Source of the DNA: a virus
Taxonomy: Duplodnaviria; Heunggongvirae; Uroviricota; Caudoviricetes
Virus record (IMG/VR): IMGVR_UViG_2671180296_000012
Direction: 5' to 3' (one strand)
Length of the DNA: 35,325 nt
Shown: one piece after another, positions 2,979 through 35,325 of the stretch
How the letters are laid out: each line of letters begins with the position of its first letter
How positions within the stretch are numbered: the stretch's first letter is position 1
Program-made: the position numbers and the translations under genes
Notes under the pieces: generated by a model
What the model saw: the letters and a program-made list of their open reading frames with translations, nothing else
Databases searched by the model: none
Told to the model about the DNA's origin: nothing

Positions 2979-3329
2979 ATGAAAAAAAACGCTAATAATC
3001 CATACTCCAAATTTCGTAATGGCGTAGAACGCCATGTACACCACGTCACTACCAGTGCATCACGTAGTAACAGTCGCTATAACCTGAACGAGACGCACGC
3101 AACACCGGATGGCCACGCTGTAAAACAAATCGGCGAGCATGCCTGGCTGATTGAGAAAGCTGGAATCGTGGTCCACAAATGCCCACGCAATCCGTTTACC
3201 GGAAACCGCATTTTTGCATTGAGCTGTGGCGACAATCAGTTCGGGCAGGATTTCACATTATACGAAGCACTTCGCACGGTTGATCGTCTGCTTCGCAGGC
3301 AAAGTTTTATTAAACAGGCTGATTTATAA
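2979..3329 (+). CDS. hypothetical early protein
   Basis: 116-aa ORF in the early operon; no recognisable motif. Confidence 0.5.
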   Translation: MKKNANNPYSKFRNGVERHVHHVTTSASRSNSRYNLNETHATPDGHAVKQIGEHAWLIEKAGIVVHKCPRNPFTGNRIFALSCGDNQFGQDFTLYEALRTVDRLLRRQSFIKQADL

Positions 3330-7934: not shown

Positions 7935-8894
7935 ATGAAAATTTGTATCGACGACGGCTCCACCAACATCAAGCTGGCATGGACTGAGAACGGCGAACGC
8001 CGCAACGCCATCAGCCCGAACAGCTTCAAGTCGGAATGGTCTGCGCCGTTCGGTGGCACGCAGCCCGCGAACTACATGCTTGATGGCGTGCGCTATGGCT
8101 TTGATCCGGTCAGCGATCGCTTTGTCCAGACGACCGACACGCAGTACCAGTACAGCGATGTGAATGTAGTTGCCATTCATCACGCACTGGTCAAATCAGG
8201 CATCACACCACAGGAAGTGGATGTGGTTGTCACCCTACCACTGAGCGAGTATTTCGACACAAACGCACAGCCGGACATGGCCAACATCAACCGCAAAAAA
8301 GCGAACGTCATGCGCCCGGCGGAGTACCAGAACGGCGAAGCATTCACTATCCGTAACGTACGGGTTATGCCTGAATCCATTCCGGCTGGCTTTAAAGCAC
8401 TGGCTGACATGAGTCCGTTTGAATCCCTGCTGATTGTGGATTTAGGCGGAACCACGCTGGATGTGGCAAAGGTTCAGGGACAACTGGCAGGTATCAGCCA
8501 GGTGTTTTGCGATCCACACGTAGGCGTTTCCCTGATGGCCGATGCCGTACTGTCGGTGATGGCCACTAACGGTATGCGTACCAGTCACCACATCGCCAAT
8601 ACCATTATCGAACATCGCCATGATGAAGCCTGGCTGCGCCAGCACATCCACAATGACGCGCATTACGACAGCCTGATGGCGGTTATTCGTGAAAAGGAAG
8701 AAACACTGAAACAACGCGTGATCCGCGCGCTGGCGGGTTTTTCGGGTTACGGGCGGGTGATGGTTGTCGGTGGAGGGGCGGAGATTGTGGCACCCGCTAT
8801 CCGCGAAGCCTGCGGAGTTAATGCGACTTTCATCGCGGACGGGGTGCCACAGTTTGCTCTGGTTAATGGGCTGTACGCAATGGACAAGGAGTAA
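7935..8894 (+). CDS. parM: actin-like segregation ATPase ParM/StbA homolog
   Basis: 319 aa; strong resemblance to plasmid R1 ParM as recalled (MKICIDDGSTNIKLAW, ISPNSFK, YSDVNVVAIHHAL, VMPESIPAG, LLIVDLGGTTLDV, VMVVGGGAE). Confidence 0.85.
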   Translation: MKICIDDGSTNIKLAWTENGERRNAISPNSFKSEWSAPFGGTQPANYMLDGVRYGFDPVSDRFVQTTDTQYQYSDVNVVAIHHALVKSGITPQEVDVVVTLPLSEYFDTNAQPDMANINRKKANVMRPAEYQNGEAFTIRNVRVMPESIPAGFKALADMSPFESLLIVDLGGTTLDVAKVQGQLAGISQVFCDPHVGVSLMADAVLSVMATNGMRTSHHIANTIIEHRHDEAWLRQHIHNDAHYDSLMAVIREKEETLKQRVIRALAGFSGYGRVMVVGGGAEIVAPAIREACGVNATFIADGVPQFALVNGLYAMDKE

Positions 8895-10520: not shown

Positions 10521-10822
10521 AAAAACACACTTTTTCTGCGCGCAGGTGACGGGGGAACAGCCCGCGTTTCAGGGGGTAAATAGCGTTCCCTTAACGATGT
10601 CGCAGCGACACGACAGAATGGCCGTATTTCTCACGCTGAGCGTGAAAAATACGTGAGGGATTCTGGTTTGATGGGGTGAAAGGTAAGGCCGTCAAAATCG
10701 CACTGAGGCGGCGAGAACATGCAGTCAGCGCAGTGGGATTGCGTAAGAGTCTGACCGTCGATGATGGCAATAAGCAGGAAAGCGTCGTGAAATTATCTGA
10801 CTGATACAGGAGCTGGAGAGTC

Positions 10823-13670: not shown

Positions 13671-13824
13671 TGCTCCCCCTGAGTAATTACAGGAAGATTA
13701 CCCGCGCGCGAAACCGTTCTCCTTAACCCCCTGTTCTGGCCGTTTTCTTACAACAAAAGCCCTTTGTATCAGCCTGTTACGCTTTGCCATCATGACTGAA
13801 GAACCAGTCAGAGGGGCAAAAACT

Positions 13825-14661
13825 ATGGCTAATGAAAAAAAGACATCCCGCAAAAAGTTTCGCGTGGCTGTCTCCGGATCAACTGTTGATGGCCGTGAAA
13901 TCAGTCCGGTGCATCTGCGTGAAGCCGCCGAGAACTTCAACCCGGATGTTTACGCTGCCCGCGTGAACGTTGAGCACTATCTCTCGCCATGCCCGTCAAG
14001 CGAATTTTCCGCAATGGGCGATGTCACCGCACTGAGTACGGAAGACATTACGGAAGGTCCGCTGGCCGGACGTACTGCGCTGTATGCAGAAATCGAACCG
14101 ACCGAGCGCATGAAGCAGCTTGTCGCTGACGGCAAGAAAATCTATTCCAGTATCGAACTGCACCCGCAGTTCTCCGTTAACGGGCGCGCCTATCTGGTCG
14201 GGCTGGCGATGACCGACACCCCGGCAAGCCTGGGCACTGAGCGCCTGAAATTCACGGCACAGCAACGTCAGGCGGTGATGACGTTCAACAGTATCCAGGG
14301 TGAAGCGCCGCTTATCTCCGAAGCCATCGAGTCTGAAATCATCGAAATGGCAGAACAACGCCAGGAAGAAGGCACCCAGTGGTTTAACCGCGTAATGGGG
14401 ATTATTGGCCGTGGCCGCAAAGCGGATGACGCCAGTTTTTCCCGCATTCAGGAAGCAGTGGAAGGCGTCGCAACGTCACAGGCCGACATTATCGACCGTT
14501 TTAATGCACTGGAAGCCCGCCATAAGCAGGACCGTCAGAAAATCACGTCACTGACCACAGAGCTGACAGCACTGAAGGAAAAACTGCGCACGCAGGACGG
14601 CGATCCGCAGAACCGGTTCACCGCAACGGGCGCAGCCTCCGATCAACTGGCTGACTTCTGA
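13825..14661 (+). CDS. O: capsid scaffolding protein gpO
   Basis: ATG at 13825 with GAGGGG upstream, in frame within track ORF 13792-14661; resembles P2 gpO (FRVAVSGSTVDGREI, YLVGLAMTDTPASLGTE). Confidence 0.85.
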   Translation: MANEKKTSRKKFRVAVSGSTVDGREISPVHLREAAENFNPDVYAARVNVEHYLSPCPSSEFSAMGDVTALSTEDITEGPLAGRTALYAEIEPTERMKQLVADGKKIYSSIELHPQFSVNGRAYLVGLAMTDTPASLGTERLKFTAQQRQAVMTFNSIQGEAPLISEAIESEIIEMAEQRQEEGTQWFNRVMGIIGRGRKADDASFSRIQEAVEGVATSQADIIDRFNALEARHKQDRQKITSLTTELTALKEKLRTQDGDPQNRFTATGAASDQLADF

Positions 14662-19103: not shown

Positions 19104-19731
19104 GGCATTCACCCGCGTGGATGAAACCTTTGAGGCCATCCGCGACAGCCTGAATCAGCAGGCCATCAATAACATCGCCAGAAAGCTGGCACAGGATTTA
19201 CGCCGCGCCCAGCAGGCGCGTATCCGGTCACAGAAAGCGCCGGACGGGACTGCATGGACACCACGCAGACGCCGCGTAACCCGGATACAGGAGCGCATTC
19301 GCTTTATCTGGAATAACGAAGCACGCACGCTGAAAAACTGGCATCACGACACGGGGAAATACGGGCGAACCATTACCGGGTGGGATGAGGATAAAAACAA
19401 TATCCGCACGTTTTACCGGGATGACATCGACCGTTTTCTGGAAATACGCACCCGGCGCATCAACCAGGACAGCACCAGGCGCGTCCCCATGTTCGTAAAA
19501 CTGCGCACCGCCCGCTACCTGAAAGCCCGTGCAGATGCTTCCGGTGTGACGGTGGGTTACAGCGGCGTGGCCGCACGTATTGCACGCGTTCATCAGTTCG
19601 GTGAGCGTGATCAGGTTGCGCCGGGCATTTTCACCGATTACCCGGTACGTGAGCTGCTGGGTATCAGCCAGGCAGATGAGCGCCTGATTTATAACACGGT
19701 GCTGGGCCGGATTGCGGAGGCTGTACGGTGA
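19096..19731 (+). CDS. S: tail completion / virion morphogenesis protein (gpS position)
   Basis: ATG at 19096 with GGGGTG upstream (track ORF starts at GTG 19087); about 211 aa between R and V. Confidence 0.7.
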   Translation: MDKAFTRVDETFEAIRDSLNQQAINNIARKLAQDLRRAQQARIRSQKAPDGTAWTPRRRRVTRIQERIRFIWNNEARTLKNWHHDTGKYGRTITGWDEDKNNIRTFYRDDIDRFLEIRTRRINQDSTRRVPMFVKLRTARYLKARADASGVTVGYSGVAARIARVHQFGERDQVAPGIFTDYPVRELLGISQADERLIYNTVLGRIAEAVR

Positions 19732-19808
19732 GCGCAGAACTCATGCGACTGCTGAGCAATATCATCCGCACCGGGATCATCTCTGAAGTTGATGAGAAGT
19801 CCTAGCGC

Positions 19809-20309
19809 GTGCGCGTTCGCAGCGGCGAACTGGAAACAGGCTGGCTGCGCTGGAACACCACGCGCGCGGGAGCCTTCAATGTGTGGCTGCCGCCATCACC
19901 AGGCGAACAGGTGGTAATTGCCTGCATTGGCGGCAACCCGGAAACCGCCATGATAATTGGCAGCCTGTGGAGTGATGCCAATCCGGCCCCCGGCAAAAGC
20001 CTGAAAGAAATCGTGGTCAGCGCGCCGGATGGCGCGGTGTTCCGCTACGACGCGGACGCAGGCGCACTGAGCGCCAGCGGCATGAAAACAGCCAGCCTGC
20101 AGGCATCCGTCAGCGTGACACTGAACACGCCCGTCGTGGAATGCACAGACCTTCTGAGAACGGCGACGCTTGACGTCACAAAAGGGGGAAAGATGAGCGG
20201 CAATATCACGCACAGCGGCGGCAATTTCACCTCAAACGGCATCACAGTGCATACGCATAAACACGGTGGCGTTAAAGGTGGCAGCGATTCGACAGGAGGC
20301 CCGCAGTGA
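19809..20309 (+). CDS. V: baseplate spike/assembly protein gpV; intact ORF as drawn, but conserved N-terminal coding sequence continues upstream to GTG 19728 across an in-frame TAG at 19803-19805
   Basis: 166-aa ORF resembling P2 gpV (WLRW, PSPGEQVVI, HTHKHGGV). The 25 codons upstream in the same frame (VSAELMRLLSNIIRTGIISEVDEKS) resemble the gpV N-terminus and start at a GTGA overlap with gene S. Confidence 0.7.
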   Translation: MRVRSGELETGWLRWNTTRAGAFNVWLPPSPGEQVVIACIGGNPETAMIIGSLWSDANPAPGKSLKEIVVSAPDGAVFRYDADAGALSASGMKTASLQASVSVTLNTPVVECTDLLRTATLDVTKGGKMSGNITHSGGNFTSNGITVHTHKHGGVKGGSDSTGGPQ

Positions 20310-22157: not shown

Positions 22158-23767
22158 CAGTGAAATACTACGCCATTCTGACTAATCAGGGCGCGGCACG
22201 ACTGGCTAACGCGACGATGCTCGGCAGTAAGCTGAATCTGACGCAAATGGCCGTTGGTGATGCAAATGGTGTGTTACCAACACCAGACCCTGCACAAACA
22301 AAACTGATTAACCAGAAACGCATTGCACCGCTGAATCTTCTGAGTGTTGACCCTAACAATCAGAGCCAGATTATTGCGGAGCAAATCATCCCTGAAAACG
22401 AGGGAGGATTCTGGATCCGTGAGATTGGTCTTTATGATGATGAAGGTGTACTCATTGCGGTGGCAAACTGCCCGGAAACGTACAAACCGCAGTTGCAGGA
22501 AGGCAGTGGACGCACCCAGACTATCCGCATGATTCTGGTTGTCACGAACACCGAAGCCATCACGCTGAAAATCGACCCGTCTGTGGTTCTGGCAACCCGC
22601 AAATATGTGGATGATAAAATCTCAGAGCACGAACAGTCACGACGTCACCCGGACGCCTCGCTGACCGTAAAAGGTTTTACTCAGTTAAGCAGTGCAATTA
22701 ACAGTGAATCAGAAACACTGGCCGCAACACCGAAAGCGGTTAAGGCTGCATATGACCTGGCTAACGGGAAATATACCGCCCAGAACGCCACCACTACACA
22801 AAAAGGAATTGTTCAGCTCAGTAGCGCCACGAACAGCACGTCTGAAACGCTGGCAGCGACACCAAAATCTGTTAAGGCGGTAATGGATGAAACGAACAAG
22901 AAAGCACCATTAAACAGCCCGGCACTGACCGGAACGCCAACAACACCAACAGCGCCACAGGGGACTAATGATACCCAGATCGCAAGCACAGCTTTCGTTA
23001 TGGCCGCGATTACCGCACTTGTAGATTCGTCACCTGATGCACTGAACACGCTGAACGAACTGGCTGCGGCGCTGGGCAATGACCCGAATTTTGCGACCAC
23101 CATGACTAACGCGCTTGCGGGTAAGCAACCGAAGGATGCCACCCTGACGGCGCTGGCGGAGCTTGCTACATCAGCAGATAAACTCCCATATTTTACAGGG
23201 GCAGATCGTGCCGCGTTAACCGCGTTGACGAGTGTTGGACGTGCCATTCTTGGTAAAACCAGCACTCAGGGAGTTCTTGATTACCTTGGTTTGGGAGAAG
23301 GCTCTGCATTACCTGTTGGTGTCCCTGTTCCGTGGCCTTCAGCCACTCCGCCAACAGGCTGGCTGAAATGCAACGGAGCAGCTTTTTCTGCTGAAGAATA
23401 CCCGGAACTGGCAAAGGCTTACCCGACAAATAAATTGCCAGATTTACGTGGTGAGTTTATTCGTGGCTGGGATGACGGGCGTGGTATTGATGCTGGACGT
23501 GCTTTATTGAGCCTTCAGGCTGGGATGCTGGAAAAACACCGCCATATTGTTGTTGCCAATGATGGTTACGACACAAAAGATGAATGGGAACTGGCTACGA
23601 TTTTCAAAAAAACATACACACAAGGACGGGGACTTGATGCCACAAATACAGGAGGGAGTCTGATCCCATCACCGACACTTCATTCACGAGGGAGTATCGG
23701 TAATACTGGCGGGAGTGAGACCCGTCCACGAAATATTGCATTTAACTTTATCGTGAGGGCTGCATAA
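22154..23767 (+). CDS. H: tail fibre protein gpH (conserved N-terminal part plus currently expressed variable C-terminus)
   Basis: 537 aa; conserved N-terminus; C-terminal motif PVPWPSATPPTGWLKCNGAAF typical of tail-fibre receptor-binding tips; contains the left crossover site. Confidence 0.9.
   Translation: MTVKYYAILTNQGAARLANATMLGSKLNLTQMAVGDANGVLPTPDPAQTKLINQKRIAPLNLLSVDPNNQSQIIAEQIIPENEGGFWIREIGLYDDEGVLIAVANCPETYKPQLQEGSGRTQTIRMILVVTNTEAITLKIDPSVVLATRKYVDDKISEHEQSRRHPDASLTVKGFTQLSSAINSESETLAATPKAVKAAYDLANGKYTAQNATTTQKGIVQLSSATNSTSETLAATPKSVKAVMDETNKKAPLNSPALTGTPTTPTAPQGTNDTQIASTAFVMAAITALVDSSPDALNTLNELAAALGNDPNFATTMTNALAGKQPKDATLTALAELATSADKLPYFTGADRAALTALTSVGRAILGKTSTQGVLDYLGLGEGSALPVGVPVPWPSATPPTGWLKCNGAAFSAEEYPELAKAYPTNKLPDLRGEFIRGWDDGRGIDAGRALLSLQAGMLEKHRHIVVANDGYDTKDEWELATIFKKTYTQGRGLDATNTGGSLIPSPTLHSRGSIGNTGGSETRPRNIAFNFIVRAA
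22670..22905 (+). repeat. tandem protein-level repeats inside gpH (two copies of about 35 aa)
   Basis: KGFTQLSSAINSESETLAATPKAVKAAYDLANGKY and KGIVQLSSATNSTSETLAATPKSVKAVMDETNKK, read from the translation. Confidence 0.6.
23274..23299. promoter_or_regulatory. left crossover site for DNA invertase (hix/gix-like, TTCTTGATTACC-TT-GGTTTGGGAGAA) inside gpH
   Basis: 26-bp site with a 2-bp core; partner site in inverted orientation at 25140-25165 with complementary core (AA). Confidence 0.6.
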
Positions 23768-24375
23768 TGGATAACGCAGTATTAAATAGCGAGTTTATTG
23801 CCACGAAGGCGGGGAATATTACCGTCTATAACTACGATGGTGAAACTCGGGAATATATTTCTGCATCAACTGAATATCTTGCAGTGGGTGTCGGTATTCC
23901 AGCATATTCCTGTTTAGACGCTCCTGGTACATATAAGGCTGGTTATACAATTTGCCGTTCTGTAGATTTAAATTCATGGGAATATGTGCCAGACCATCGC
24001 GGTGAAATCGTCTATAACACCGAAACGGGAGATGCCAAAGAAATCACAGCACCGGGTGATTACCCCGAAAATACAACCACTATCGCCCCATTAACGCCAT
24101 ACGATAAATGGGATGGTGAGAAATGGGTGACCGATACTGAGGCACAGCATAGCGCCGCAGTAGACGCGGCAGAAGCACAGCGTCAGTCACTGATTGATAC
24201 TGCAATGGCTTCCATTAGTCTGATTCAGCTGAAATTACAGGCCGGACGGAATCTGACGCAGTCAGAAACCAGCCGACTTAACACGGTGTTGGATTACATT
24301 GACGCGGTGACGGCAACAGATACCAGCACCGCGCCGGATGTTATCTGGCCTGAACTGCCGGAGACTGCACAATAA
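23767..24375 (+). CDS. G: tail fibre assembly chaperone gpG (for the currently expressed fibre tip)
   Basis: 202-aa ORF immediately after gpH with ATGA overlap. Confidence 0.8.
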   Translation: MDNAVLNSEFIATKAGNITVYNYDGETREYISASTEYLAVGVGIPAYSCLDAPGTYKAGYTICRSVDLNSWEYVPDHRGEIVYNTETGDAKEITAPGDYPENTTTIAPLTPYDKWDGEKWVTDTEAQHSAAVDAAEAQRQSLIDTAMASISLIQLKLQAGRNLTQSETSRLNTVLDYIDAVTATDTSTAPDVIWPELPETAQ

Positions 24376-24544
24376 ACTCACCATCAATATATAAATCCCC
24401 CTGCTGTGTGTCAGCAGGGCATTCTTTCCATATTAATGATGGATGGAATCTTCCTTCAGGATTAATTTCCGTTATCTCTTCTACTTTATTTTCTTCAATT
24501 CTTGCCCACATATGAACCTCACCAGTAAATATAAACTGCGCCAT
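24341..24544 (-). CDS. putative alternative tail fibre assembly chaperone (start uncertain; track ORF extends to 24769)
   Basis: Minus-strand ORF inside the invertible segment; ATG at 24544 (MAQFIF...) overlaps the stop of the alternative fibre cassette; upstream in-frame starts would overlap that cassette by 170-250 nt. Confidence 0.35.
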   Translation of the reverse strand: MAQFIFTGEVHMWARIEENKVEEITEINPEGRFHPSLIWKECPADTQQGDLYIDGEFIVQSPAVQAR

Positions 24545-25152
24545 CTGCTCCGGCACCCGACTGACCCGTTGATGAATTAGGACATAATCCAGCACCGCCA
24601 CCTCCAGGCCCAACTGCTGATACCGCTTTTCCGTTAGCTGTATCTCTGAATGAACCTGCTCCTCCGGGGCCACCACCAGAACCACCATTACCAGCTCCCG
24701 ATGCGGCAGAAGCAATGGAACCTGGAGAACCTGGCCCAAGCGATGTATTAATTGTTCCCCCGACACCAACTGCGCCTAACCCTCCGGAAGGCTGGCCTCC
24801 GCTATAGCCTCCGGAAGCTGACATGTAAGTCCCGAAACTGCTCGAGCCACCATTTTTACCGTTTACAGAAATACCAGACACAGGCGCACCACCGGCACCA
24901 ACCGTAATCGAAACACTGTTTATACCAGTTAAATCTACCAGCCCCTCAGCAACTCCGCCCCCACCACCTCCTCCGCCACATGTAACGGCTGAAGCGGTTG
25001 TTGAACCTATCCCTCCTGACGCACCGCCACCAATAACTTTGACGTAACATTTTCTTCCATTGCGCAACTCTTCAGGAACAGTCCAGCTTGTTACTCCAGC
25101 CGTTGTGAAGGCAACCAGATTTCTGAACCCAAATGAACCTTCTCTCAAACCA
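24519..25152 (-). CDS. silent alternative tail-fibre C-terminal cassette (glycine-rich), no start codon of its own
   Basis: Minus-strand ORF reading into the right crossover site. Manual inversion between the two sites joins it in frame to gpH, giving ...DYLGLREGSFGFRNLVAFTTAGVTSWTVPEE..., which matches the translated minus-strand ORF. Confidence 0.65.
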
Positions 25153-25165
25153 ACGTTTAAGAAAA
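25140..25165. promoter_or_regulatory. right crossover site for DNA invertase (TTCTCTCAAACC-AA-CGTTTAAGAAAA)
   Basis: Resembles hix/gix/cix sites as recalled; inverted relative to the site at 23274-23299; lies just upstream of the invertase gene. Confidence 0.6.
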
Positions 25166-25220
25166 TGCAGAGATTACGGCTAACTGGCATCATCCCCGGT
25201 TTTTATTCAGGGGATCCATC

Positions 25221-25820
25221 ATGCTTATTGGCTATGTCCGCGTATCAACAAATGACCAGAATACAGAATTGCAGCGTAACGCGCTGGAGTGCGCAGGATG
25301 TGAACTGATTTTTGAAGATAAAATCAGCGGAACGAAATCAGCCAGACCGGGATTGAAAAAACTGCTCAGAACGCTATCAGAAGGAGATACGCTGGTTGTC
25401 TGGAAGCTGGACAGACTGGGCAGAAGTATGAAACACCTGATCACGCTTATTGAGGAATTGCGGGAAAAAGGTGTTAATTTCCGTAGTCTGACGGACAGCA
25501 TTGACACATCAACACCCATGGGGCGTTTCTTTTTTCACGTCATGGGAGCTTTAGCCGAAATGGAACGTGAATTAATTGTAGAGCGTACACTGGCCGGGCT
25601 GGCAGCAGCACGCGCACAAGGACGCATTGGCGGACGTCGCCCGAAGTTGACAAAAGAACAACACGAGCAAATAGCGAGGCTGATTAAAAACGGTCATGAC
25701 AGGAAACAACTGGCGATCATTTACGACATCGGCATATCGACGATTTATCGTTATCACCCTGTAGGCGATATACAGGCTGAAGAAACAACCAGGCAGATTC
25801 AGGAAAATGAAAACCGCTAA
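25221..25820 (+). CDS. serine DNA invertase (Hin/Gin/Cin/Pin family)
   Basis: 199 aa; N-terminal catalytic region GYVRVSTNDQ with conserved serine, and a C-terminal HTH (GISTIYRY). Confidence 0.9.
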   Translation: MLIGYVRVSTNDQNTELQRNALECAGCELIFEDKISGTKSARPGLKKLLRTLSEGDTLVVWKLDRLGRSMKHLITLIEELREKGVNFRSLTDSIDTSTPMGRFFFHVMGALAEMERELIVERTLAGLAAARAQGRIGGRRPKLTKEQHEQIARLIKNGHDRKQLAIIYDIGISTIYRYHPVGDIQAEETTRQIQENENR

Positions 25821-25839
25821 TCTGACCATTAGCGGTTTT
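25810..25839. terminator. hairpin AAAACCGCTAAT-ctgacc-ATTAGCGGTTTT between convergent invertase and gpU genes
   Basis: Perfect 12-bp inverted repeat overlapping the invertase stop codon. Confidence 0.5.
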
Positions 25840-25846
25840 GCGTTAA

Positions 25847-26341
25847 TCAAAACAGCCCTTTAACGGAGCTGGCCGCGCTGTTAAGGGATGATGTGACCTT
25901 ATCTTTGAAGCCGGACAGCATATCACTGAACGATGAGGATTGCAGGCGCTCCCGCAAATCCTCATCACAGCGTTCAAGAGTCAGTGAAAATTCTATCTTT
26001 TTCGCCTTACCGTAGCGATCAAACTCGGAGCGGGTCGTATTCGTTTCAGTCAGTACATACATGCCGTAAATCTGCCCGACACCATCAATCAGAGGCCAGG
26101 GGCGTCCTGTATATGCCTGCGTGGTCAGCAACGAAAGCGACACTTCGCCACCTGTAATTTCAGGATAAAGCACACCAGAAAGAACGATGCGATCATCGCC
26201 TGCCCCGATATACTGCCAGCTTGCTGAACGGTTAACGCGTTCATTTTTCACATGCCGCCAGCTTTTATTTTGCTGTAACTGCTGATGCGGCAATGTGCGC
26301 AGCTCAAAAACAAACATGCCGTAGATCATCATCATGGCCAT
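25847..26341 (-). CDS. U: tail protein gpU
   Basis: 164 aa; GRPWPLIDGVGQIYGMYVL, KIEFSLTL resemble P2 gpU. Confidence 0.85.
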   Translation of the reverse strand: MAMMMIYGMFVFELRTLPHQQLQQNKSWRHVKNERVNRSASWQYIGAGDDRIVLSGVLYPEITGGEVSLSLLTTQAYTGRPWPLIDGVGQIYGMYVLTETNTTRSEFDRYGKAKKIEFSLTLERCDEDLRERLQSSSFSDMLSGFKDKVTSSLNSAASSVKGLF

Positions 26342-26347
26342 GACTCC

Positions 26348-29191
26348 TCAATCTTTATCGTAAAAACTGCCACGTCCGGCACGGTCGCGTCGTTCCAATT
26401 CTGCCCTGACCATTTCACCGACCAGTTTCGCCAGTTCGCGGGGATTCTGCGTAACAACGTTATGCAGATGAACATGAATTTCACCGCCAAATCCGGAGAC
26501 AGCAGGCTCCCGATTACGGGAAGCTGCAGGAACTGATGCCACTGGCGATCGTATGGCCTCCGCCACCGGGCGGGAGCTGGCCGCAACAACAGGGACCAGC
26601 GCCGGAGGCAGAGGAGTCGGGACCACGGGTGTGATGTTGATTGCGGAAGCAGGCTTACTGACCTGCGCAATCTTCCGCTCCTGCCACTCCCCACGAACAG
26701 CAAGTGCGCGGGGCAGGTTCTTAAAGACAATATCGCCGGGGCCAATGCGTTTTTTCGTCTCATCAACCAGCTTACCTGTGTTATCAGCAATTTTGCTGAG
26801 TCTGCGTAGCGTACCGGTATTGCTGTCTGTGAGCGGTTTGTTGTCTTTGGGTTTATCACCTCCGGTGCCATTGCCATTTTCCACAGGCTTCGGCGGATTG
26901 ATTTTCGCAAGGTCCCCCTGAAGCAAGGCAACCTTGTCCTGAAGAATGGCCGCACGCTGTGCGTCTTCGATTTTCTTTCTCGCCCTTTCCGCTTCATCCG
27001 GAAGAACACCGAGTTTTTCAAGTATCCACGCCAGCGTATCCAGCAACATTTTTGCAGGCGTCAGAACAAGCTGTAACGCGCCACCAAGAACGTTACCGAA
27101 TATCTCGCCAGCACTGGTACATTTATCCAGCGTTTCCTTGCTGGACTCCATCGGTGACAGCAGCGATTTAAACCAGTTAAACACCTGGCTGATCCCGCTT
27201 CCGATTGCGTCAAAAACAGGACCAAACTGTTCAAAGGTTTCGCGCAACGGGATCAGCCTTTCCATAATCCCGCTGAACACCCCGGCAAAAAATGCCCTGA
27301 TGGGATCCCAGTATTTCCAGATAAGAACGGCAGCTCCGGCAAGCGCAGCCACGATAAGACCAACCGGACTGAACAGCGCCCCGATAGCGCCTCCCAGCAA
27401 AGAAACGGAACCCGTCACCATTCCCCATAGTGCTGGCAGGACCCTGACAGCATTCATTGATCCGGTCAGGAGAGAAAAACCAAGACGCAGTTTTGCCAGC
27501 GGGCCAGCAAGCACACCAATAGCCAGCGACAACGAGCCAACCGTTGCAGTCATTGCCAGCAACGCACCGCCTGCTATCAGTAGCTGGCGCGTCAGTGTCG
27601 GATGGGCCTGCGCCAGCGCCGTCACCCTTGATACCACCCGTGTGAGCCACTGCGTGACAGAACGCAGCGGACCGTCAATCAGATCTGCAATGCGGATGCG
27701 CAACCCTTCCCATGCACTGCCGAGTGATTTCAGATCGCCGTCAAGGTTGTTGGCCATAACCTTTGCTGTGCGTTCAGCCTCACCGCGTGCGCCTTCAAGT
27801 TCTTTTCTCAGTTTGGGTAAGGAACCGTCACCTGCCGCATCAACGAGGGCCATAAACGATGTGAAAGCCTCTTCCCCGGCGATGTCCTTAAAGAAGGATA
27901 CCCGGTCAACTTCCCCGTATTTGCGGGTGGCTTTATAAAGGTCGGCCAGCACATCCTCCATCGGGCGCATTTTGCCGTTCGCGTCAGAAACTGCCACACC
28001 AAGCTCTTTCAGCGCCTCTGCCGCCGCCTTTGGCGGTGATGCCAGACGAGCCAGGCTGGCACGCATTGCCGTCCCGGCATCACTCCCTCTGATGCCCATA
28101 TTCGCCAGCACGCCAGCCATCGCTGCGGCCTGCTCCAGCGATATTCCCAGCTTACCCGCCACCGGACCTGCATATTTCATGGTTTCGCCCAGTGCGCGAA
28201 GGTCAGTGTTGGTACGGGTAAACGCTGCGGTGAGTGTGTCACCGACCCGGTCCATCTGGTCAGCAGAAAGGCCGAACTGCGTCAGGATATTTGAGCCAAT
28301 ATCTGCCGTCTCGCCGAGATCCATACCGCCAGCCGTTGCCATGCTCAGCACGCCGGGAAGCGCAGCCTGAATGGCCTGTGGAGTGAAGCCAGCCATTGCA
28401 AGAAATGCCTGTCCACTGGCGGCATCGCCTGCGGTGAACTGCGTTTCAGAGCCAAGTTTTAACGCCTGCTCACGCAGCGCCTTAAACTGCGGGCTGTTCT
28501 GGTCGATTCGCGTCAGTGCCTGAACGCGGGACATCTCTTTCCCGAACCCGATCGCAGGCTGCAAAAAACGCCCGGTAGCATAGCCGCCAGCCGCTGCCGC
28601 ACCAATTGCCAGCGCACCACCTGTTTTCAGTTTTCCCGCGGTTTCCTGCGCGCGCGAATACCGCTCACGCGCCCGCGTTACACGCGCAAGCGCCTGCCGT
28701 TCGCGTTCAAGCTGGTTGTTGTACTGTTCGGTGCGTCTGATGGCCTGCTGGATGGTGTTATCGCTGCCTGTCAGGGAAATGCCGTGGCGTTTCAGCTCTC
28801 CGCCAAGTTCCCGCATTTTCTGAATTTCCCGTGTGCGCGATTCATTCAGGCGTTCAAGCCGGGTGCTTAACTGCTGCATCAGCTTTTGTTGTTTTTCGCT
28901 GAGCACTGTACCCGTGCGTTGTAACTGATTAAGGGCGTTAAGCTGGCGTCGTGCTTTCAATATGCCAGCATCCGCTTTACTGACAGCGTCACGGGCGCGC
29001 TCAAATGAACGCGCCTGACGCTCGAGATTTTTGATCGCCCCCTGAGTTCGCTGGATGGAGTCACCAAACTGCCCCATCAGGCGGCGGGCGTTTTCGGCAG
29101 GCCGGGTCAGCCTGTCAACGGCGCTGAAAGCGACCCGGATATCAAGAGTCTTCATTGTCTGCATTCCCGCTGCGAAGTGCCGCCCGCTCAC
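26348..29191 (-). CDS. T: tail tape measure protein gpT
   Basis: 947 aa; long coiled-coil N-terminal region, Ala/Gly-rich hydrophobic middle, position between E' and U. Confidence 0.9.
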   Translation of the reverse strand: MSGRHFAAGMQTMKTLDIRVAFSAVDRLTRPAENARRLMGQFGDSIQRTQGAIKNLERQARSFERARDAVSKADAGILKARRQLNALNQLQRTGTVLSEKQQKLMQQLSTRLERLNESRTREIQKMRELGGELKRHGISLTGSDNTIQQAIRRTEQYNNQLERERQALARVTRARERYSRAQETAGKLKTGGALAIGAAAAGGYATGRFLQPAIGFGKEMSRVQALTRIDQNSPQFKALREQALKLGSETQFTAGDAASGQAFLAMAGFTPQAIQAALPGVLSMATAGGMDLGETADIGSNILTQFGLSADQMDRVGDTLTAAFTRTNTDLRALGETMKYAGPVAGKLGISLEQAAAMAGVLANMGIRGSDAGTAMRASLARLASPPKAAAEALKELGVAVSDANGKMRPMEDVLADLYKATRKYGEVDRVSFFKDIAGEEAFTSFMALVDAAGDGSLPKLRKELEGARGEAERTAKVMANNLDGDLKSLGSAWEGLRIRIADLIDGPLRSVTQWLTRVVSRVTALAQAHPTLTRQLLIAGGALLAMTATVGSLSLAIGVLAGPLAKLRLGFSLLTGSMNAVRVLPALWGMVTGSVSLLGGAIGALFSPVGLIVAALAGAAVLIWKYWDPIRAFFAGVFSGIMERLIPLRETFEQFGPVFDAIGSGISQVFNWFKSLLSPMESSKETLDKCTSAGEIFGNVLGGALQLVLTPAKMLLDTLAWILEKLGVLPDEAERARKKIEDAQRAAILQDKVALLQGDLAKINPPKPVENGNGTGGDKPKDNKPLTDSNTGTLRRLSKIADNTGKLVDETKKRIGPGDIVFKNLPRALAVRGEWQERKIAQVSKPASAINITPVVPTPLPPALVPVVAASSRPVAEAIRSPVASVPAASRNREPAVSGFGGEIHVHLHNVVTQNPRELAKLVGEMVRAELERRDRAGRGSFYDKD

Positions 29192-29378
29192 GCCAGCTAA
29201 CCACTTCGCCGGGCGTCATCATGAAGATTTCGGCGGGCGACCAGTTAAAAATGGCGGCAATATCCGCCACAAAGTCTTCTATGTGCTCAAAGCACACAAC
29301 CGTGATCAGGCTTCCGTCGCCTGTTCGTTCTTCCCGCCAGAGTCCGCACCGCTCAAAAAATTTACGGCAACCACACAT
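29142..29378 (-). CDS. E' extension, expected to be made as an E+E' fusion by programmed -1 frameshift at TTTTTTG (plus-strand 29354-29360)
   Basis: Slippery heptamer near the 3' end of gene E; the -1 frame continues as FFERCGLWREER...VCFEHIEDFVADIAAIF for 78 codons, overlapping the start of T. Confidence 0.6.
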   Translation of the reverse strand: MCGCRKFFERCGLWREERTGDGSLITVVCFEHIEDFVADIAAIFNWSPAEIFMMTPGEVVSWRERAALRSGNADNEDS

Positions 29379-29671
29379 AACTGAATAAAGTCACGGGATG
29401 CCATTTTTTTGATCGTCACTTCATCCAGTCGCGGTGATGTCACGCGTGACAGCAGCGTAAACATGGATTCCGCTTTCAGATTCAGCACATCAGACAGCGA
29501 CAAATCTCGCAGAGATCCAGCCTGCTCAATAGCCCCGGTGATCTCCACATACGTGATTTTTTCGCTGCCTCGCTCAATTGGTTGGGTAAGTTTTACGCCA
29601 CGCTCACTGGTTTCTTTCACAGTGTCAGCAACTACCGTGTTTTCGGTATCGATGTTTTTCGTCTCTTTCAT
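29306..29671 (-). CDS. E: tail assembly chaperone gpE
   Basis: 121-aa ORF between FII and T containing the slippery site. Confidence 0.8.
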   Translation of the reverse strand: MKETKNIDTENTVVADTVKETSERGVKLTQPIERGSEKITYVEITGAIEQAGSLRDLSLSDVLNLKAESMFTLLSRVTSPRLDEVTIKKMASRDFIQLCVVAVNFLSGADSGGKNEQATEA

Positions 29672-29725
29672 CAGGAAACTCCTTTCAGTCAGAGGCGACG
29701 CACTGCGCCGCCTGCATATTACTTA

Positions 29726-30238
29726 TCAGCCAAGCCCGAGCGCGGAACGGATGCGATCGGGCACAATGTCCTTGCCGTCCTTCCGGTAAATGAAGTTCAG
29801 CAGGTCAATCTCCCACAACGGGCGATCGTTAACACTCAGCTTGTAGTAGGTGTTTTTAATGGCGTAAGTGTGTGATGTGGCTTCGCCCTGTTTGGCTTCC
29901 CCCATATCAATTTCCGTCACACGTCCGCGCATTTCGACTTCATACAGGTCGCTTTCTGCATCGGTGTAGTATTCACCCGCAAAACGCAGCAGCGTGCCGT
30001 CAATCGTGCCGCCATACTTAAGGAACAGCTCACGAACTGCGCCCCCCATGACAAAGCTCGCATCAAGCGCGGAGTCATCCAGACCGAGATCAATACTTAC
30101 CGCTCCCATCATGCCACCACCCCGGTAGCTGTCGGTTTTGCGCGTCAGCTTAGGCAAAGTGACGGACGTCACCTTACCCACTTCGTTTTCACCATCCACA
30201 AACAGCGTAAAAAAGCGAAGATGTTTTGGCACAGCCAT
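29726..30238 (-). CDS. FII: tail tube protein gpFII
   Basis: 170 aa; VTLPKLTRK, DLGLDD, LRFAG resemble P2 FII. Confidence 0.9.
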   Translation of the reverse strand: MAVPKHLRFFTLFVDGENEVGKVTSVTLPKLTRKTDSYRGGGMMGAVSIDLGLDDSALDASFVMGGAVRELFLKYGGTIDGTLLRFAGEYYTDAESDLYEVEMRGRVTEIDMGEAKQGEATSHTYAIKNTYYKLSVNDRPLWEIDLLNFIYRKDGKDIVPDRIRSALGLG

Positions 30239-31422
30239 CAGGCACCTCCCAGCACCGCAAATGCGGGTTCAAAGTATTCATCAGTAAACGTCTGGTAAAG
30301 CTCCATGTCTTCCAGTGGCGGAACGGGCGTATATTTGTAGCGAATACGCACACGCCCCTGACGTAAATCCGTGGTGCTGTTATCCACCACGTCATACCAG
30401 CACTCCGCGCCAATCAGTTTCCCGGCAGTCACCAGTGAATCCAGTTTTGCCCTGATGGCACTGATAACATCCTTCACGTTCGCAGGCGTCAGTGGACTGT
30501 CGATGGTTTCAAACTGCGCTTCCGCAATTGAATCAGCCAGCACCTGTGCGGTTCGGGTATACACCTCAAAAATGTAGGCGTTCGTTTCCGGTGTGCGGTT
30601 GCCCCAGAAGCGGAACCCGTTGCGACGAATAATGGTCGTGATTTCTTTGTTGTTGAGGCTGTTGGCATCGCTGTCTTCGGCCTGCAACGACCAGAACACA
30701 TGCCTCGACATCCCCAGCACATTTTTAACCGGAACGTTGGACAGCGATTTGTGCCAGCCCTGCTCATGGTCAATGTACGCACGAAGGCCGCACGCATAGG
30801 CAGGCGCGGGGAACGTTTCGTTTTCGCCACTTTTCGGGTTGTAGGCGATGAAGTCCGGCCATAAGAGCATCACTTCACGTTCGTTGAATTTCTGGCGGTA
30901 GGTAATCGCTTCAGCCATCGTGTTACAGCCGTGACATGAGGCATACACAAATGCGCGCAGTTTACCCGCAATCACGCACAGGGATTTTGTCACCGCCTCC
31001 GTGTCCAGCTCCGGCGCGGCCAGAATACGCGGACGGTATCCGATGCTTTCATCCTGCTCTGCAACAAGCAGCGCATACATCCCCGTATAGCTGCCGTCAT
31101 CCTCAGAACCACCGATAACCAGTTGATCCTGCGTCTTTTCGTCTTCTTCTTTGTGTTCAGCCACGCGAACGACGATCACCTTTGTGCTCACCTGGTCTGC
31201 GATGGCCTTAAGCGCACGATAAAGCGTCCCCGTTGTTCCGCATTTTCCCAGCACGTCATTGACGCGGGTCAGCAGTGTGGGCTTGTTCAGCGGGAACAGC
31301 TTCGCGTCCGCATCATCCGCCGTTGCCACGATACCGATAACGCTGGAATCAACATCGTTAATCGCTGTTACCAGGTCGGTATTTTCCGTAACACGGGTAC
31401 CATGAAAACGAGTTTCACTCAT
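30238..31422 (-). CDS. FI: tail sheath protein gpFI
   Basis: 394 aa; start overlaps the FII region as in P2; size and position fit the tail sheath. Confidence 0.9.
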   Translation of the reverse strand: MSETRFHGTRVTENTDLVTAINDVDSSVIGIVATADDADAKLFPLNKPTLLTRVNDVLGKCGTTGTLYRALKAIADQVSTKVIVVRVAEHKEEDEKTQDQLVIGGSEDDGSYTGMYALLVAEQDESIGYRPRILAAPELDTEAVTKSLCVIAGKLRAFVYASCHGCNTMAEAITYRQKFNEREVMLLWPDFIAYNPKSGENETFPAPAYACGLRAYIDHEQGWHKSLSNVPVKNVLGMSRHVFWSLQAEDSDANSLNNKEITTIIRRNGFRFWGNRTPETNAYIFEVYTRTAQVLADSIAEAQFETIDSPLTPANVKDVISAIRAKLDSLVTAGKLIGAECWYDVVDNSTTDLRQGRVRIRYKYTPVPPLEDMELYQTFTDEYFEPAFAVLGGA

Positions 31423-31579
31423 AGCTTCAGCCCCTTGTATCCGTTAAATGATTCGGCAACAATCATCACCCACCACGCGCGTAATCTCACCCCTGCGCCG
31501 TTCTCCCGCCACGGCGACAACAAAAAGCAGTAACCCCCTCCGCACGCACATGCGACCATGCCACACAGGGAGGGAGCAG

Positions 31580-32680
31580 ATGACCGACACCACCATGCAA
31601 TTGCTCAGTCAGGACACAGACCCCGTGAAAATGCCGGATTTTGATATTCTCGCCGAGGGTAAAACGCTGTCCGGCGTGGCAGAACGCCTGATGAGCCTGT
31701 CACTGACCGACAACCGGGGATTTGAGGCGGACCAGCTCACCATCACGCTGGATGATGCCGATGGCCAGTTGCAGCTACCGCCACGGGGCGCGCGTCTGAC
31801 GGTTCTCATTGGCTGGAAAGGGGAACCGCTGACAGAAAAAGGCACTTACATTGTTGATGAAATCGCTCACGAAGGACCGCCGGACAGGCTGACTGTTTCA
31901 GCCAGAAGCGCAGATTTTCGGGATGAATTTAACGTTAAACGTGAGGTGTCCTGGCATGATGTGACCGTTGAGCGAGTGGTATCCGCCATCGCTCATCGGT
32001 ACGGTCTGAAACCACAAATCAGCGAAATGCTGATGGATATCGAAATCGACCACGCCGACCAGACCGAAGAAAGCGACATGTCCTTCCTTACGCGCATGGC
32101 GGAAATGCTGGGCGCAATCACCACGGTAAAAAGCGGCAATCTGTTATTCATTATGCCAGGCGGTGGCGTAAACGCGCAGGGGCAGCCGTTGCCATCGTTC
32201 GCCATCACACGCAGCAGCGGCGATCGCCATCAGTTCCGCATTGCTGACCGCGAGGCGTATACGGGGGTACGCGCCTACTGGCTTGATCTTAATTACGGGA
32301 AAAAGAAAAAAGTCAGCGTGAAACGCCGCAAACCGAAAAAGGAGAAAAGCAGCAGCCGTGAAGGTGACTATATGGAAGGTGCGGAAGGCAACGTGTTTGT
32401 GTTACGCAAGACTTATCAGAACGAGCAGGCAGCAAGACGTGCAGCGGCGGCAAAGTGGCAGCAGCTACAACGCGGAGCCGCATCATTCTCCATCACACTG
32501 GCGCGTGGATGCGCAGAACTCTATCCCGAAATGCATGGCACGGTGACAGGCTTCAAAAGTGACATCGATAATCAGGACTGGATTATTGCAAAAGCCGAGC
32601 ACACCATTGATAACAGCGGCTTTACCACGCAGCTTGAGCTTGAAGCAAAAATCCCGGAATGGATAGCAGAAACAGAGTAA
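31580..32680 (+). CDS. D: tail protein / late control protein gpD
   Basis: ATG at 31580 with AGGGAGGGAG upstream (track ORF starts at 31448); LTDNRGFEADQL, SARSADFR, SWHD, ITRSSGDRHQFRIADREAYTGV, GFKSDID, GFTTQLELE resemble P2 gpD. Confidence 0.85.
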   Translation: MTDTTMQLLSQDTDPVKMPDFDILAEGKTLSGVAERLMSLSLTDNRGFEADQLTITLDDADGQLQLPPRGARLTVLIGWKGEPLTEKGTYIVDEIAHEGPPDRLTVSARSADFRDEFNVKREVSWHDVTVERVVSAIAHRYGLKPQISEMLMDIEIDHADQTEESDMSFLTRMAEMLGAITTVKSGNLLFIMPGGGVNAQGQPLPSFAITRSSGDRHQFRIADREAYTGVRAYWLDLNYGKKKKVSVKRRKPKKEKSSSREGDYMEGAEGNVFVLRKTYQNEQAARRAAAAKWQQLQRGAASFSITLARGCAELYPEMHGTVTGFKSDIDNQDWIIAKAEHTIDNSGFTTQLELEAKIPEWIAETE

Positions 32681-32722
32681 GCAACTTAGAATAGCGGCAG
32701 CACCACGTTAAGGGAGGTCGCT

Positions 32723-32983
32723 ATGTTCCGTTGTCCGCTTTGTGGCGCATCTGCCCGTATCCGCACCAGTCGTCCGGAAAATGATTCAAACACCGTGCGG
32801 CAAAAGTATTACCAGTGTAACAACCTGGAATGCGGCGTATGCTTCTCAACACTGGAAGCTTTCCATAAATTCACATCGAAACACGCCTCCGGCGTTCACT
32901 CTTCAGAAGGTATCCCGTGGCATGAGCTGCCAGCTTCGCACAGGGGAAACAATCAGATGAGCTTGCCTTTACCTCAGAATTAA
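32723..32983 (+). CDS. ogr: Ogr/Delta-family zinc-finger late transcription activator
   Basis: 86 aa; N-terminal MFRCPLCG...ARIRTSR...YYQCNNLEC Cys4 pattern as in P2 Ogr; last gene before the element end. Confidence 0.75.
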   Translation: MFRCPLCGASARIRTSRPENDSNTVRQKYYQCNNLECGVCFSTLEAFHKFTSKHASGVHSSEGIPWHELPASHRGNNQMSLPLPQN

Positions 32984-34323: not shown

Positions 34324-34410
34324 TGGTACCCGGAGCGGGACTTGAACCCGCACAGCGCGAACGCCGAGGGATTTTAAATCCCTTGTGTCTACCGATTCCA
34401 CCATCCGGGC
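34324..34410 (-). tRNA. leuZ: tRNA-Leu (anticodon UAA)
   Basis: Reverse complement reads GCCCGGATGGTGGAATCGGTAGACACAAGGGATTTAAAATCCC...GGGTACCA; 87 nt with long variable arm and encoded CCA. Confidence 0.9.
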
Positions 34411-34422
34411 TCGGGAAGAAAG

Positions 34423-34496
34423 TGGAGGCGCGTTCCGGAGTCGAACCGGACTAGACGGATTTGCAATCCGCTACATAACCGCTTTGTTAACGCGCC
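34423..34496 (-). tRNA. cysT: tRNA-Cys (anticodon GCA)
   Basis: Reverse complement reads GGCGCGTTAACAAAGCGGTTATGTAGCGGATTGCAAATCCGTCTAGTCCGGTTCGACTCCGGAACGCGCCTCCA; 74 nt. Confidence 0.9.
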
Positions 34497-34549
34497 AAAT
34501 TCTTCAGGCCTTTCAGCCGGACATCCGCTGAAGCCGATGTCTTTTAAAC

Positions 34550-34625
<76 letters not shown>

Positions 34626-34776: not shown

Positions 34777-35325
34777 TCACTGATCAAGCAAATCTGCACG
34801 CGCAGCGCTCAAATATTGCAACATTGACCACAGAGTCAGTACCGCAGCCACAAAGAAAAGTGCAATACCGGCGTACTCAACCCAAATGTTCGGACGCCAC
34901 AGCAGCCAGGCCAGCGCTACCATCTGGGCAGTGGTTTTCACTTTCCCAATCCAGGAGACAGCCACGCTACTGCGTTTACCCAACTCTGCCATCCATTCGC
35001 GTAGCGCAGAAATAATAATTTCACGGGCGATCATCGTTGCCGCCGGTAATGTCACCCACCAGCTGTGATAATGCTCGGTTACCAGCACCATGGCGATAGC
35101 CACGAGAACTTTATCTGCTACAGGGTCAAGGAAAGCACCAAACCGGGTACTCTGGTTCCAGCGGCGTGCCAGAAAACCATCGAACCAGTCAGTCACCGCC
35201 GCGACGCAGAAAATGAGCGCGGCGGCAAACGGCGACCAGGTGACAGGCAGATAAAAGACCAATACAAAGAATGGGATAAGGATGACACGGAACAGTGTAA
35301 GCAACGTAGGGATATTAAATTGCAT
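34777..35325 (-). CDS. pgsA: CDP-diacylglycerol--glycerol-3-phosphate 3-phosphatidyltransferase (phosphatidylglycerophosphate synthase)
   Basis: 182-aa ORF (start codon at window end) with the CDP-alcohol phosphotransferase motif [10 protein letters not shown]...[10 protein letters not shown]; matches E. coli PgsA as recalled; upstream of glyW-cysT-leuZ as in E. coli. Confidence 0.95.

Follow-up and report, generated by a model that had tools for sequence, protein, structure and literature searches.

A minus-strand F operon beside a divergent D gene is the standard gene order of P88-like, P2-family prophages and very probably stems from a single ancient inversion

The tail genes FI, FII, E, T, and U of phage P2 form, together with D, one operon that is read in the same direction as genes V to G. 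We analyzed a stretch of 35,325 nt (IMG/VR record IMGVR_UViG_2671180296_000012; hereafter, the window) holding a P2-family prophage in which the same block lies on the minus strand, next to a plus-strand D gene. This layout is an ordinary lineage trait, an old family feature that is not peculiar to this prophage. We hold with considerable confidence that the minus-strand FI-FII-E/E'-T-U block is the fixed, standard order of a large enterobacterial P2-like clade; that it goes back to a single ancient inversion, which would have carried the F-operon promoter and its activator dyad along; and that the neighboring invertase was not involved. The spacer between FI and D is predicted to act now as a bidirectional late promoter. 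Of this reading, gene order, distribution, monophyly, lack of polymorphism, and conservation of the promoter-like elements are observed; dependence on Ogr, transcript starts, and breakpoint positions are inferred. The layout itself has been visible for years in annotated public genomes. We found no description of the clade inversion or of an FI/D promoter in the literature: the P88 paper, a 2026 survey of P2-like viruses, and a C. rodentium prophage paper mention neither inversion nor orientation nor gene order, and a paper on Burkholderia P2-like phages uses the word ‘inverted’ in unrelated senses only.

Genes were called from an open reading frame (ORF) map and identified by Pfam and PHROG profile searches. 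The prophage has a complete P2-type late gene set (Q, P, O, N, M, L ... V, W, J, I, H, G, FI, FII, E/E', T, U, D, and ogr). Minus-strand U, T, E/E', FII, and FI (25847-31422) are flanked by a plus-strand invertase gene on one side and by plus-strand D and ogr on the other; FI and D diverge across a spacer of 157 bp (31423-31579), and D cannot be co-transcribed with FI-U. A first-pass annotation of this DNA had described all of this correctly, including every gene identity and strand between 25847 and 31579, and had rightly stated that V-W-J-I-H-G, FI-FII-E-T-U-D, and ogr share one strand in P2 (NC_001895); comparing gene order with P2 confirms that the FI-U block is inverted in the window. Otherwise, the two phages have much in common, namely the late gene set, the E/E' frameshift device (annotated in the P2 record and intact here, with a TTTTTTG slippery heptamer), an Ogr-type activator, and an activator dyad of the TGT-N12-ACA type, although protein identities are only 32-48%. 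Unlike in the window, the U stop codon of P2 overlaps the D start, and P2 has no invertase but Z/fun in the corresponding slot.

The closest named relatives share the arrangement in full. A 9.3-kb query over the region aligns as a single collinear piece, at 94-96% nucleotide identity, to phage P88 (NC_026014), Xuanwuvirus P884B11, and Citrobacter phage Shae_phiSM (PhiSM). The annotations of P88 and PhiSM place the invertase (plus), U-T-E-FII-FI (minus), D (plus), and ogr (plus) on the same strands and in the same order as in the window, with 94.7-95.5% nucleotide identity across 7.8 kb; most of the tail proteins show 97-100% identity (75% for E in PhiSM). In both, the FI/D spacer is again 157 bp, with dyad arms identical to those of the window; the N12 between the arms differs in PhiSM. 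The differences from P88 and PhiSM lie in the tail-fiber genes H and G, the immunity and early genes, and the integration site. Identity to P88 reaches 95.5% over 84% of the 9.3-kb query and 98.9% over a 351-nt query at the S/V junction, figures that describe these regions only; genus level, as set by the ICTV, the international body for virus taxonomy, is ~70% nucleotide identity over most of the genome. The window matches the P88 annotation gene by gene and has the genus-typical inverted F operon and divergent FI/D pair. We read it as a P88-like (Xuanwuvirus) P2-family prophage with the standard gene order of its group. P88 forms plaques, with a burst size of ~65, and has a contractile tail (PMC5285337), and PhiSM has been called a fully functional temperate phage (PMC6456863). 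The first-pass annotation had proposed an ancestral inversion of ~5.6 kb. The block is indeed inverted relative to P2 and the outgroups named below, but as the fixed layout of a whole clade rather than as an event private to this prophage, since related functional phages routinely have this orientation, the very finding that the annotation had named as grounds against a rearrangement.

The same order extends well beyond Xuanwuvirus. It is found in phages of three further ICTV genera, SEN5 (Senquatrovirus), Kp4871-3 (Reginaelenavirus), and Kp4847-1 (Reipivirus), whose D proteins are 63-73% identical to that of the window. In 1107 of 5426 complete Escherichia coli genomes, O157:H7 and ST131 strains among them, one collinear alignment covered 80% or more of the invertase-to-ogr region. 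To look across species, we scanned one genome per species with the D protein, took the best 80 of 433 matches, and used tblastn to assign an orientation to these, to phage loci, and to the window. Seventy-one loci (62 from the best 80, eight phage or E. coli records, and the window) have minus-strand U, T, FII, and FI beside plus-strand D and ogr, and 18 have the P2 order. The two groups split cleanly by identity to the window D: all loci at 59% or above are inverted, and all at 53% or below are co-directional. The 62 inverted prophage loci among the best 80 of the 433 matches come from ~28, mostly enterobacterial, genera, including Escherichia, Salmonella, Citrobacter, Klebsiella, Enterobacter, Serratia, Erwinia, Pantoea, Pectobacterium, Edwardsiella, Providencia, Morganella, Xenorhabdus, Photorhabdus, Yersinia, and Hafnia. 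One contig labeled as the Gram-positive Vagococcus sp. WN89Y (L010, NZ_JBQPOM010000071.1) has a full P88-like tail region with a D 98% identical to that of the window, and is most likely contamination or a mislabeled assembly. That the arrangement is an assembly artefact of the source genome, an idea for which we found no support, has a negligible probability: the same junctions recur, as single collinear alignments, in independent phage records and in the 1107 E. coli genomes.

Phylogeny points to one event. Neighbor-joining trees were built from D, a marker beyond the block, and from FI, FII, and U, three markers within it; in each, the inverted loci group as one clade with zero intruders on a stem branch of 0.15-0.23. 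The outgroups (P2, Pseudomonas phiCTX, Shewanella M16-3, Ralstonia RsoM1USA, and Vibrio MAR) are all co-directional. Because the inverted set is monophyletic and the outgroups have the co-directional order, a single inversion, now fixed, is the simplest reading, and the inversion must be old, since protein identity within the clade falls to 40-56%. P2-like phages are mosaic, and their tail-fiber and cargo regions clearly exchange, so the layout might instead have arisen several times or spread by recombination of tail modules. We consider this improbable, given that each of the four markers returns the same intruder-free clade with its long stem and that the architecture of the FI/D spacer is homologous across the whole clade.

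The gene next to the block encodes a serine invertase, and serine invertases are known to use secondary sites. The first-pass annotation had suggested that the enzyme may have flipped the FI-U block through such a site. A recent, or still ongoing, flip of this kind is extremely unlikely. A degenerate 26-bp hix/cix pattern allowing up to three mismatches has exactly two matches in the window (0 expected by chance), and both belong to the tail-fiber segment (23274-25165); at this threshold there is no third site in the window, and nothing comparable lies at 25.8 kb or 31.5 kb, in agreement with the earlier failure to identify convincing crossover sites around the block. The best inverted repeats flanking the block, pairs I8 (26054/31910) and I21 (24987/31411), are 22 nt long, 73-82% matched, and inside genes; we rejected them as being at chance level, no better than dozens of other pairs. 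An invertase match by tblastn lies near the block in just 13 of the 71 inverted loci, and the annotations of phage SEN5 and of a related prophage (L005) have no invertase, with the orientation of the block unchanged. Orientation is constant across all 71 loci. We also built a synthetic P2-orientation junction, joining the last 400 nt of the invertase gene to the first 600 nt of FI in same-strand orientation, and used it as a query against complete E. coli genomes: either half was matched in 1535 genomes, and both halves together in none. The divergence within the clade likewise speaks for an old event. What the window does have is a typical Hin/Gin/Cin/Pin switch, in which a serine invertase and two inverted 26-bp sites enclose alternative fiber tips and chaperones. 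The FI-U block is unlike such segments, with no border sites, no orientation polymorphism, and a recombinase that is not always present. Nothing here points to switching, or to any past action of the invertase on the FI-U block; in our reading, the enzyme serves the tail-fiber segment alone and has no role in the orientation of the block.

With FI on the opposite strand, D needs a promoter of its own within the 157-bp spacer. Late promoters of P2 are marked by the consensus TGT-N12-ACA (PMC3931495, citing Christie and Calendar 1985 and Julien and Calendar 1995), and the prophage in the window encodes an Ogr/Delta-type activator homolog with a four-cysteine motif (PF04606), 42% identical to P2 Ogr over 53 aa. 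The spacer holds a dyad of this type, TCT-N12-ACA (within GTTCT...ACAAC), together with two predicted -10 elements, one facing FI and one facing D. Both -10-like hexamers end 48.5 nt from the dyad center, in exact mirror symmetry, which would put both predicted transcript starts ~55 nt from that center, a distance judged from the conserved -10 elements.

These elements are conserved across the clade. T[GC]T-N12-ACA occurs in 65 of the 71 FI/D spacers of inverted loci, at an offset of 65-79 nt from the FI ATG, and the other six have one-base variants of the dyad at the same place. In 34 representatives with less than 80% mutual identity, anchored on the dyad, the arms are nearly invariant (T0 in 33, T2 in 34, A15 in 34, C16 in 33, and A17 in 34), and the TGT form is found in 23. 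A minus-strand (G)AnnAT makes up the left block (-40 to -36), whose positions -40, -39, and -36 are each kept in 33/34. The right block, AAnnAT ending at +57, is kept at A53 in 31/34, A56 in 26/34, and T57 in 30/34. The sequence between the dyad arms and these blocks is free to vary, and the distance from the start of the dyad to the D ATG is 75-89 nt in nearly all representatives.

P2 itself provides the precedent. Its record has a single dyad-symmetric activator site (3057-3087) between the P and O promoters (pP and pO), whose divergent starts (3016 and 3127) are ~111 bp apart; the center of the site is 55-56 nt from each, the same spacing that conservation indicates for the FI/D spacer. In the window, the divergent P/O spacer also contains a dyad of this type, flanked by the same architecture (O truly starts at 13825, according to the P88 annotation). 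The FI promoter (pF) also has the geometry of its P2 counterpart, with a dyad ~70 nt from the FI ATG, but its pairing with a D promoter (pD) has no counterpart in P2, and the FI and D starts are predicted ones. Accordingly, the expectation of the first-pass annotation that late promoter elements would be found in the FI/D spacer was borne out, as a conserved dyad with two -10-like elements; its wording of separate late promoters fits less well, since the arrangement resembles a single activator site shared by two divergent core promoters, as in P2 pP/pO.

Alternatively, the inversion could be a fixed lineage trait with D expressed from an independent promoter, either an Ogr-independent sigma-70 promoter or one with a separate activator site, the dyad not being shared with pF. 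In its favor, the right-hand -10 element is less conserved (26-31/34) than the left-hand one (33/34), and the interval from the dyad to the pD -10 includes a conserved CGCGCGC block. We regard it as unlikely. A sigma-70 consensus scan of the spacer returned no promoter, a result that fits activator dependence but is uninformative alone, and we found no other conserved dyad within the 157 bp. The mirror symmetry of the -10 elements and the single-site P2 pP/pO, with the identical architecture in this phage's own P/O spacer, speak for a shared site instead.

Some observations weigh against our reading of the locus as a whole. (i) The trees are simple neighbor-joining trees without bootstrap, from 71 inverted and 18 P2-type loci, which leaves room for rare reversals elsewhere. 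(ii) The dyad of the window is the TCT variant, not canonical TGT-N12-ACA; the only exact TGT-N12-ACA match in the window, at 10598, is unrelated to late genes, and the motif was relaxed to T[GC]T, a step justified afterwards by relatives with TGT at the same position. (iii) The predicted D leader is short, ~14 nt. (iv) Apart from the FI/D dyad, the window has only one perfect GTTST-N12-ACAAC, in the P/O spacer (13733-13754), and two perfect extended dyads in 35 kb are no more than expected by chance. Because the count of perfect matches is at chance level, the argument for the dyad rests on its location and conservation.

How could such a promoter have arisen? In P2-type enterobacterial loci, the pF dyad is 67-74 nt from the FI ATG and has the same -10 block, and for this reason we propose that pF traveled with the inverted block. 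Beyond the dyad, these loci have terminator hairpins instead of a second -10, which suggests that one cut fell just past the dyad on its distal side and the other between U and D, and that the pD half is an innovation of the inverted clade. In this scenario, the F operon would have inverted in the ancestor of the clade together with its own promoter and Ogr-type dyad, and the inversion would have brought a dyad-symmetric activator site to a position directly upstream of D. Within the clade, D is variable in its N-terminal 12-18 residues, which would fit a rebuilt 5' end. The FI/D spacer would now act as a compact bidirectional late promoter, with one Ogr site serving a leftward pF (FI to U) and a rightward pD.

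The window may be economical in late promoters more generally. The S stop and V start codons overlap (GTGA, 19728-19731), with no spacer, terminator, or activator dyad, whereas P2 has orf30, a terminator, and a separate V promoter (pV) with its own site at this place. No third dyad was found: a relaxed search of the window for a pV site gave 50 matches against 50 expected, none of them upstream of V. Given this overlap, pO may drive a single long operon of head, lysis, and baseplate genes in this lineage. On the sequence evidence, we lean toward the view that one Ogr dyad in the FI/D spacer drives pF and also pD, the latter newly evolved; combined with pP/pO and the S/V overlap, the whole late programme would then run from two bidirectional sites, compared with three in P2.

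Coordinates of the genes and elements are collected in Table 1. The T ORF is open as far as a GTG at 29191, and the ATG that matches the P88 start is the one adopted. As the start of D, we rejected the ATG at 31448; the 410-aa ORF that it opens crosses the promoter region and is unused in the P88 annotation, where D is 1101 bp. A ribosome-binding site, GGGAGGGAG, at 31569-31577 lies ahead of the D start chosen here. The hairpin between the convergent invertase and U genes is likely a bidirectional terminator that closes the minus-strand F operon.

Table 1. Genes and sequence elements of the inverted F operon and related loci (positions in the 35,325-nt window).
Feature	Position	Strand	Evidence or remark
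Activator (Ogr-type, predicted) dyad in P/O spacer	13735-13752		Same flanking architecture as FI/D dyad
Left crossover site (hix/cix-like, 26 bp) of tail-fiber segment, within H	23274-23299		Pattern search; inverted-repeat pair I5
Right crossover site of tail-fiber segment, just upstream of invertase gene	25140-25165		Pattern search; inverted-repeat pair I5
Serine DNA invertase (Hin/Gin/Cin/Pin type)	25221-25820	+	Pfam Resolvase and HTH_7; PHROG 125
Hairpin, 12-bp stem, between convergent invertase and U	25810-25839		Terminator scan and sequence
U (tail protein)	25847-26341	-	PF06995 Phage_P2_GpU, E=5.5e-39; 99% identity with P88
T (tape measure)	26348-29155	-	PF10145; PHROG 28; P88 annotates 2808 bp
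E	29306-29671	-	PHROG 103; PHROG 1756 (E/E')
E+E' (-1 frameshift)	29142-29671	-	TTTTTTG slip site 29360-29354; E' frame ends 29142
FII (tail tube, Phage_tube)	29726-30238	-	PF04985, E=7.5e-47
FI (tail sheath)	30238-31422	-	PF04984, PF22671, PF17482; PHROG 23
Predicted pF -10, GATGAT	31467-31462	-	Predicted FI start ~31455
Activator (Ogr-type, predicted) dyad in FI/D spacer, TCT-N12-ACA	31502-31519		Center 31510.5; ~55 nt from both predicted starts
Predicted pD -10, GACCAT	31554-31559	+	Predicted D start ~31566
D (baseplate hub / late control D, Phage_GPD)	31580-32680	+	PF05954; PHROG 52; 99% identity with P88 D
ogr homolog	32723-32983	+	PF04606 Ogr_Delta; 86 aa, CX2CX24CX4C zinc finger

Several further features of the prophage deserve mention. 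Gene content varies in the slot between G and U: the window has the complete fiber switch there (23274-25820), with two crossover sites, a minus-strand alternative fiber tip and chaperone, and the invertase, and the O111:H2 relative L005 has a serine O-acetyltransferase (779-1351). Similarly, the gap between D and ogr, empty in the window (42 bp, 32681-32722), is a cargo hotspot in related E. coli prophages (L003, 9325-10908; L004, 9055-10224; L005, 8586-10088), which there encode an endonuclease of the GmrSD type, a DUF3800 protein, or a PIN-domain protein. Codon 26 of the baseplate spike gene V (19728-20309) is an in-frame TAG (19803-19805), against TGG in P88, a single G-to-A change in sequence that is 99% identical elsewhere; without suppression of this codon or a restart of translation at the GTG at 19809, tail production by the prophage is probably blocked.

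The right end is flanked by genes for tRNA-Leu(taa), tRNA-Cys, and tRNA-Gly and by a CDP-alcohol phosphatidyltransferase (pgsA-like) gene (34324-34625 and 34777-35325), which places this copy at the tRNA-Leu/Cys/Gly-pgsA locus; near-identical relatives sit beside ihfA/pheT or raiA. The early region includes a ParM/StbA-type actin-like partition gene (7935-8894), as P88 gp17, which is unusual for an integrating P2-like phage. Between integrase and repressor lie two minus-strand ORFs of low guanine-cytosine content (~0.39; 1008-2035), one DUF2511-like and the other without a significant family match, possibly lysogenic-conversion cargo.

In practical terms, annotation should treat a minus-strand F operon beside a plus-strand D gene in P88-like prophages neither as a rearrangement or artefact nor as a mark of decay. 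The layout is present, at 80% collinearity or more, in about one-fifth of complete E. coli genomes and recurs across many Enterobacterales. Its orientation offers a clean marker, of single origin, by which Xuanwuvirus, Senquatrovirus, Reginaelenavirus, Reipivirus, and their relatives can be told apart from P2, 186, and Fels-2-type phages. If the promoter model is true, a dyad-symmetric activator site would make the inversion of an operon viable, the stranded downstream gene gaining a promoter, a modest lesson drawn by inference from this locus.

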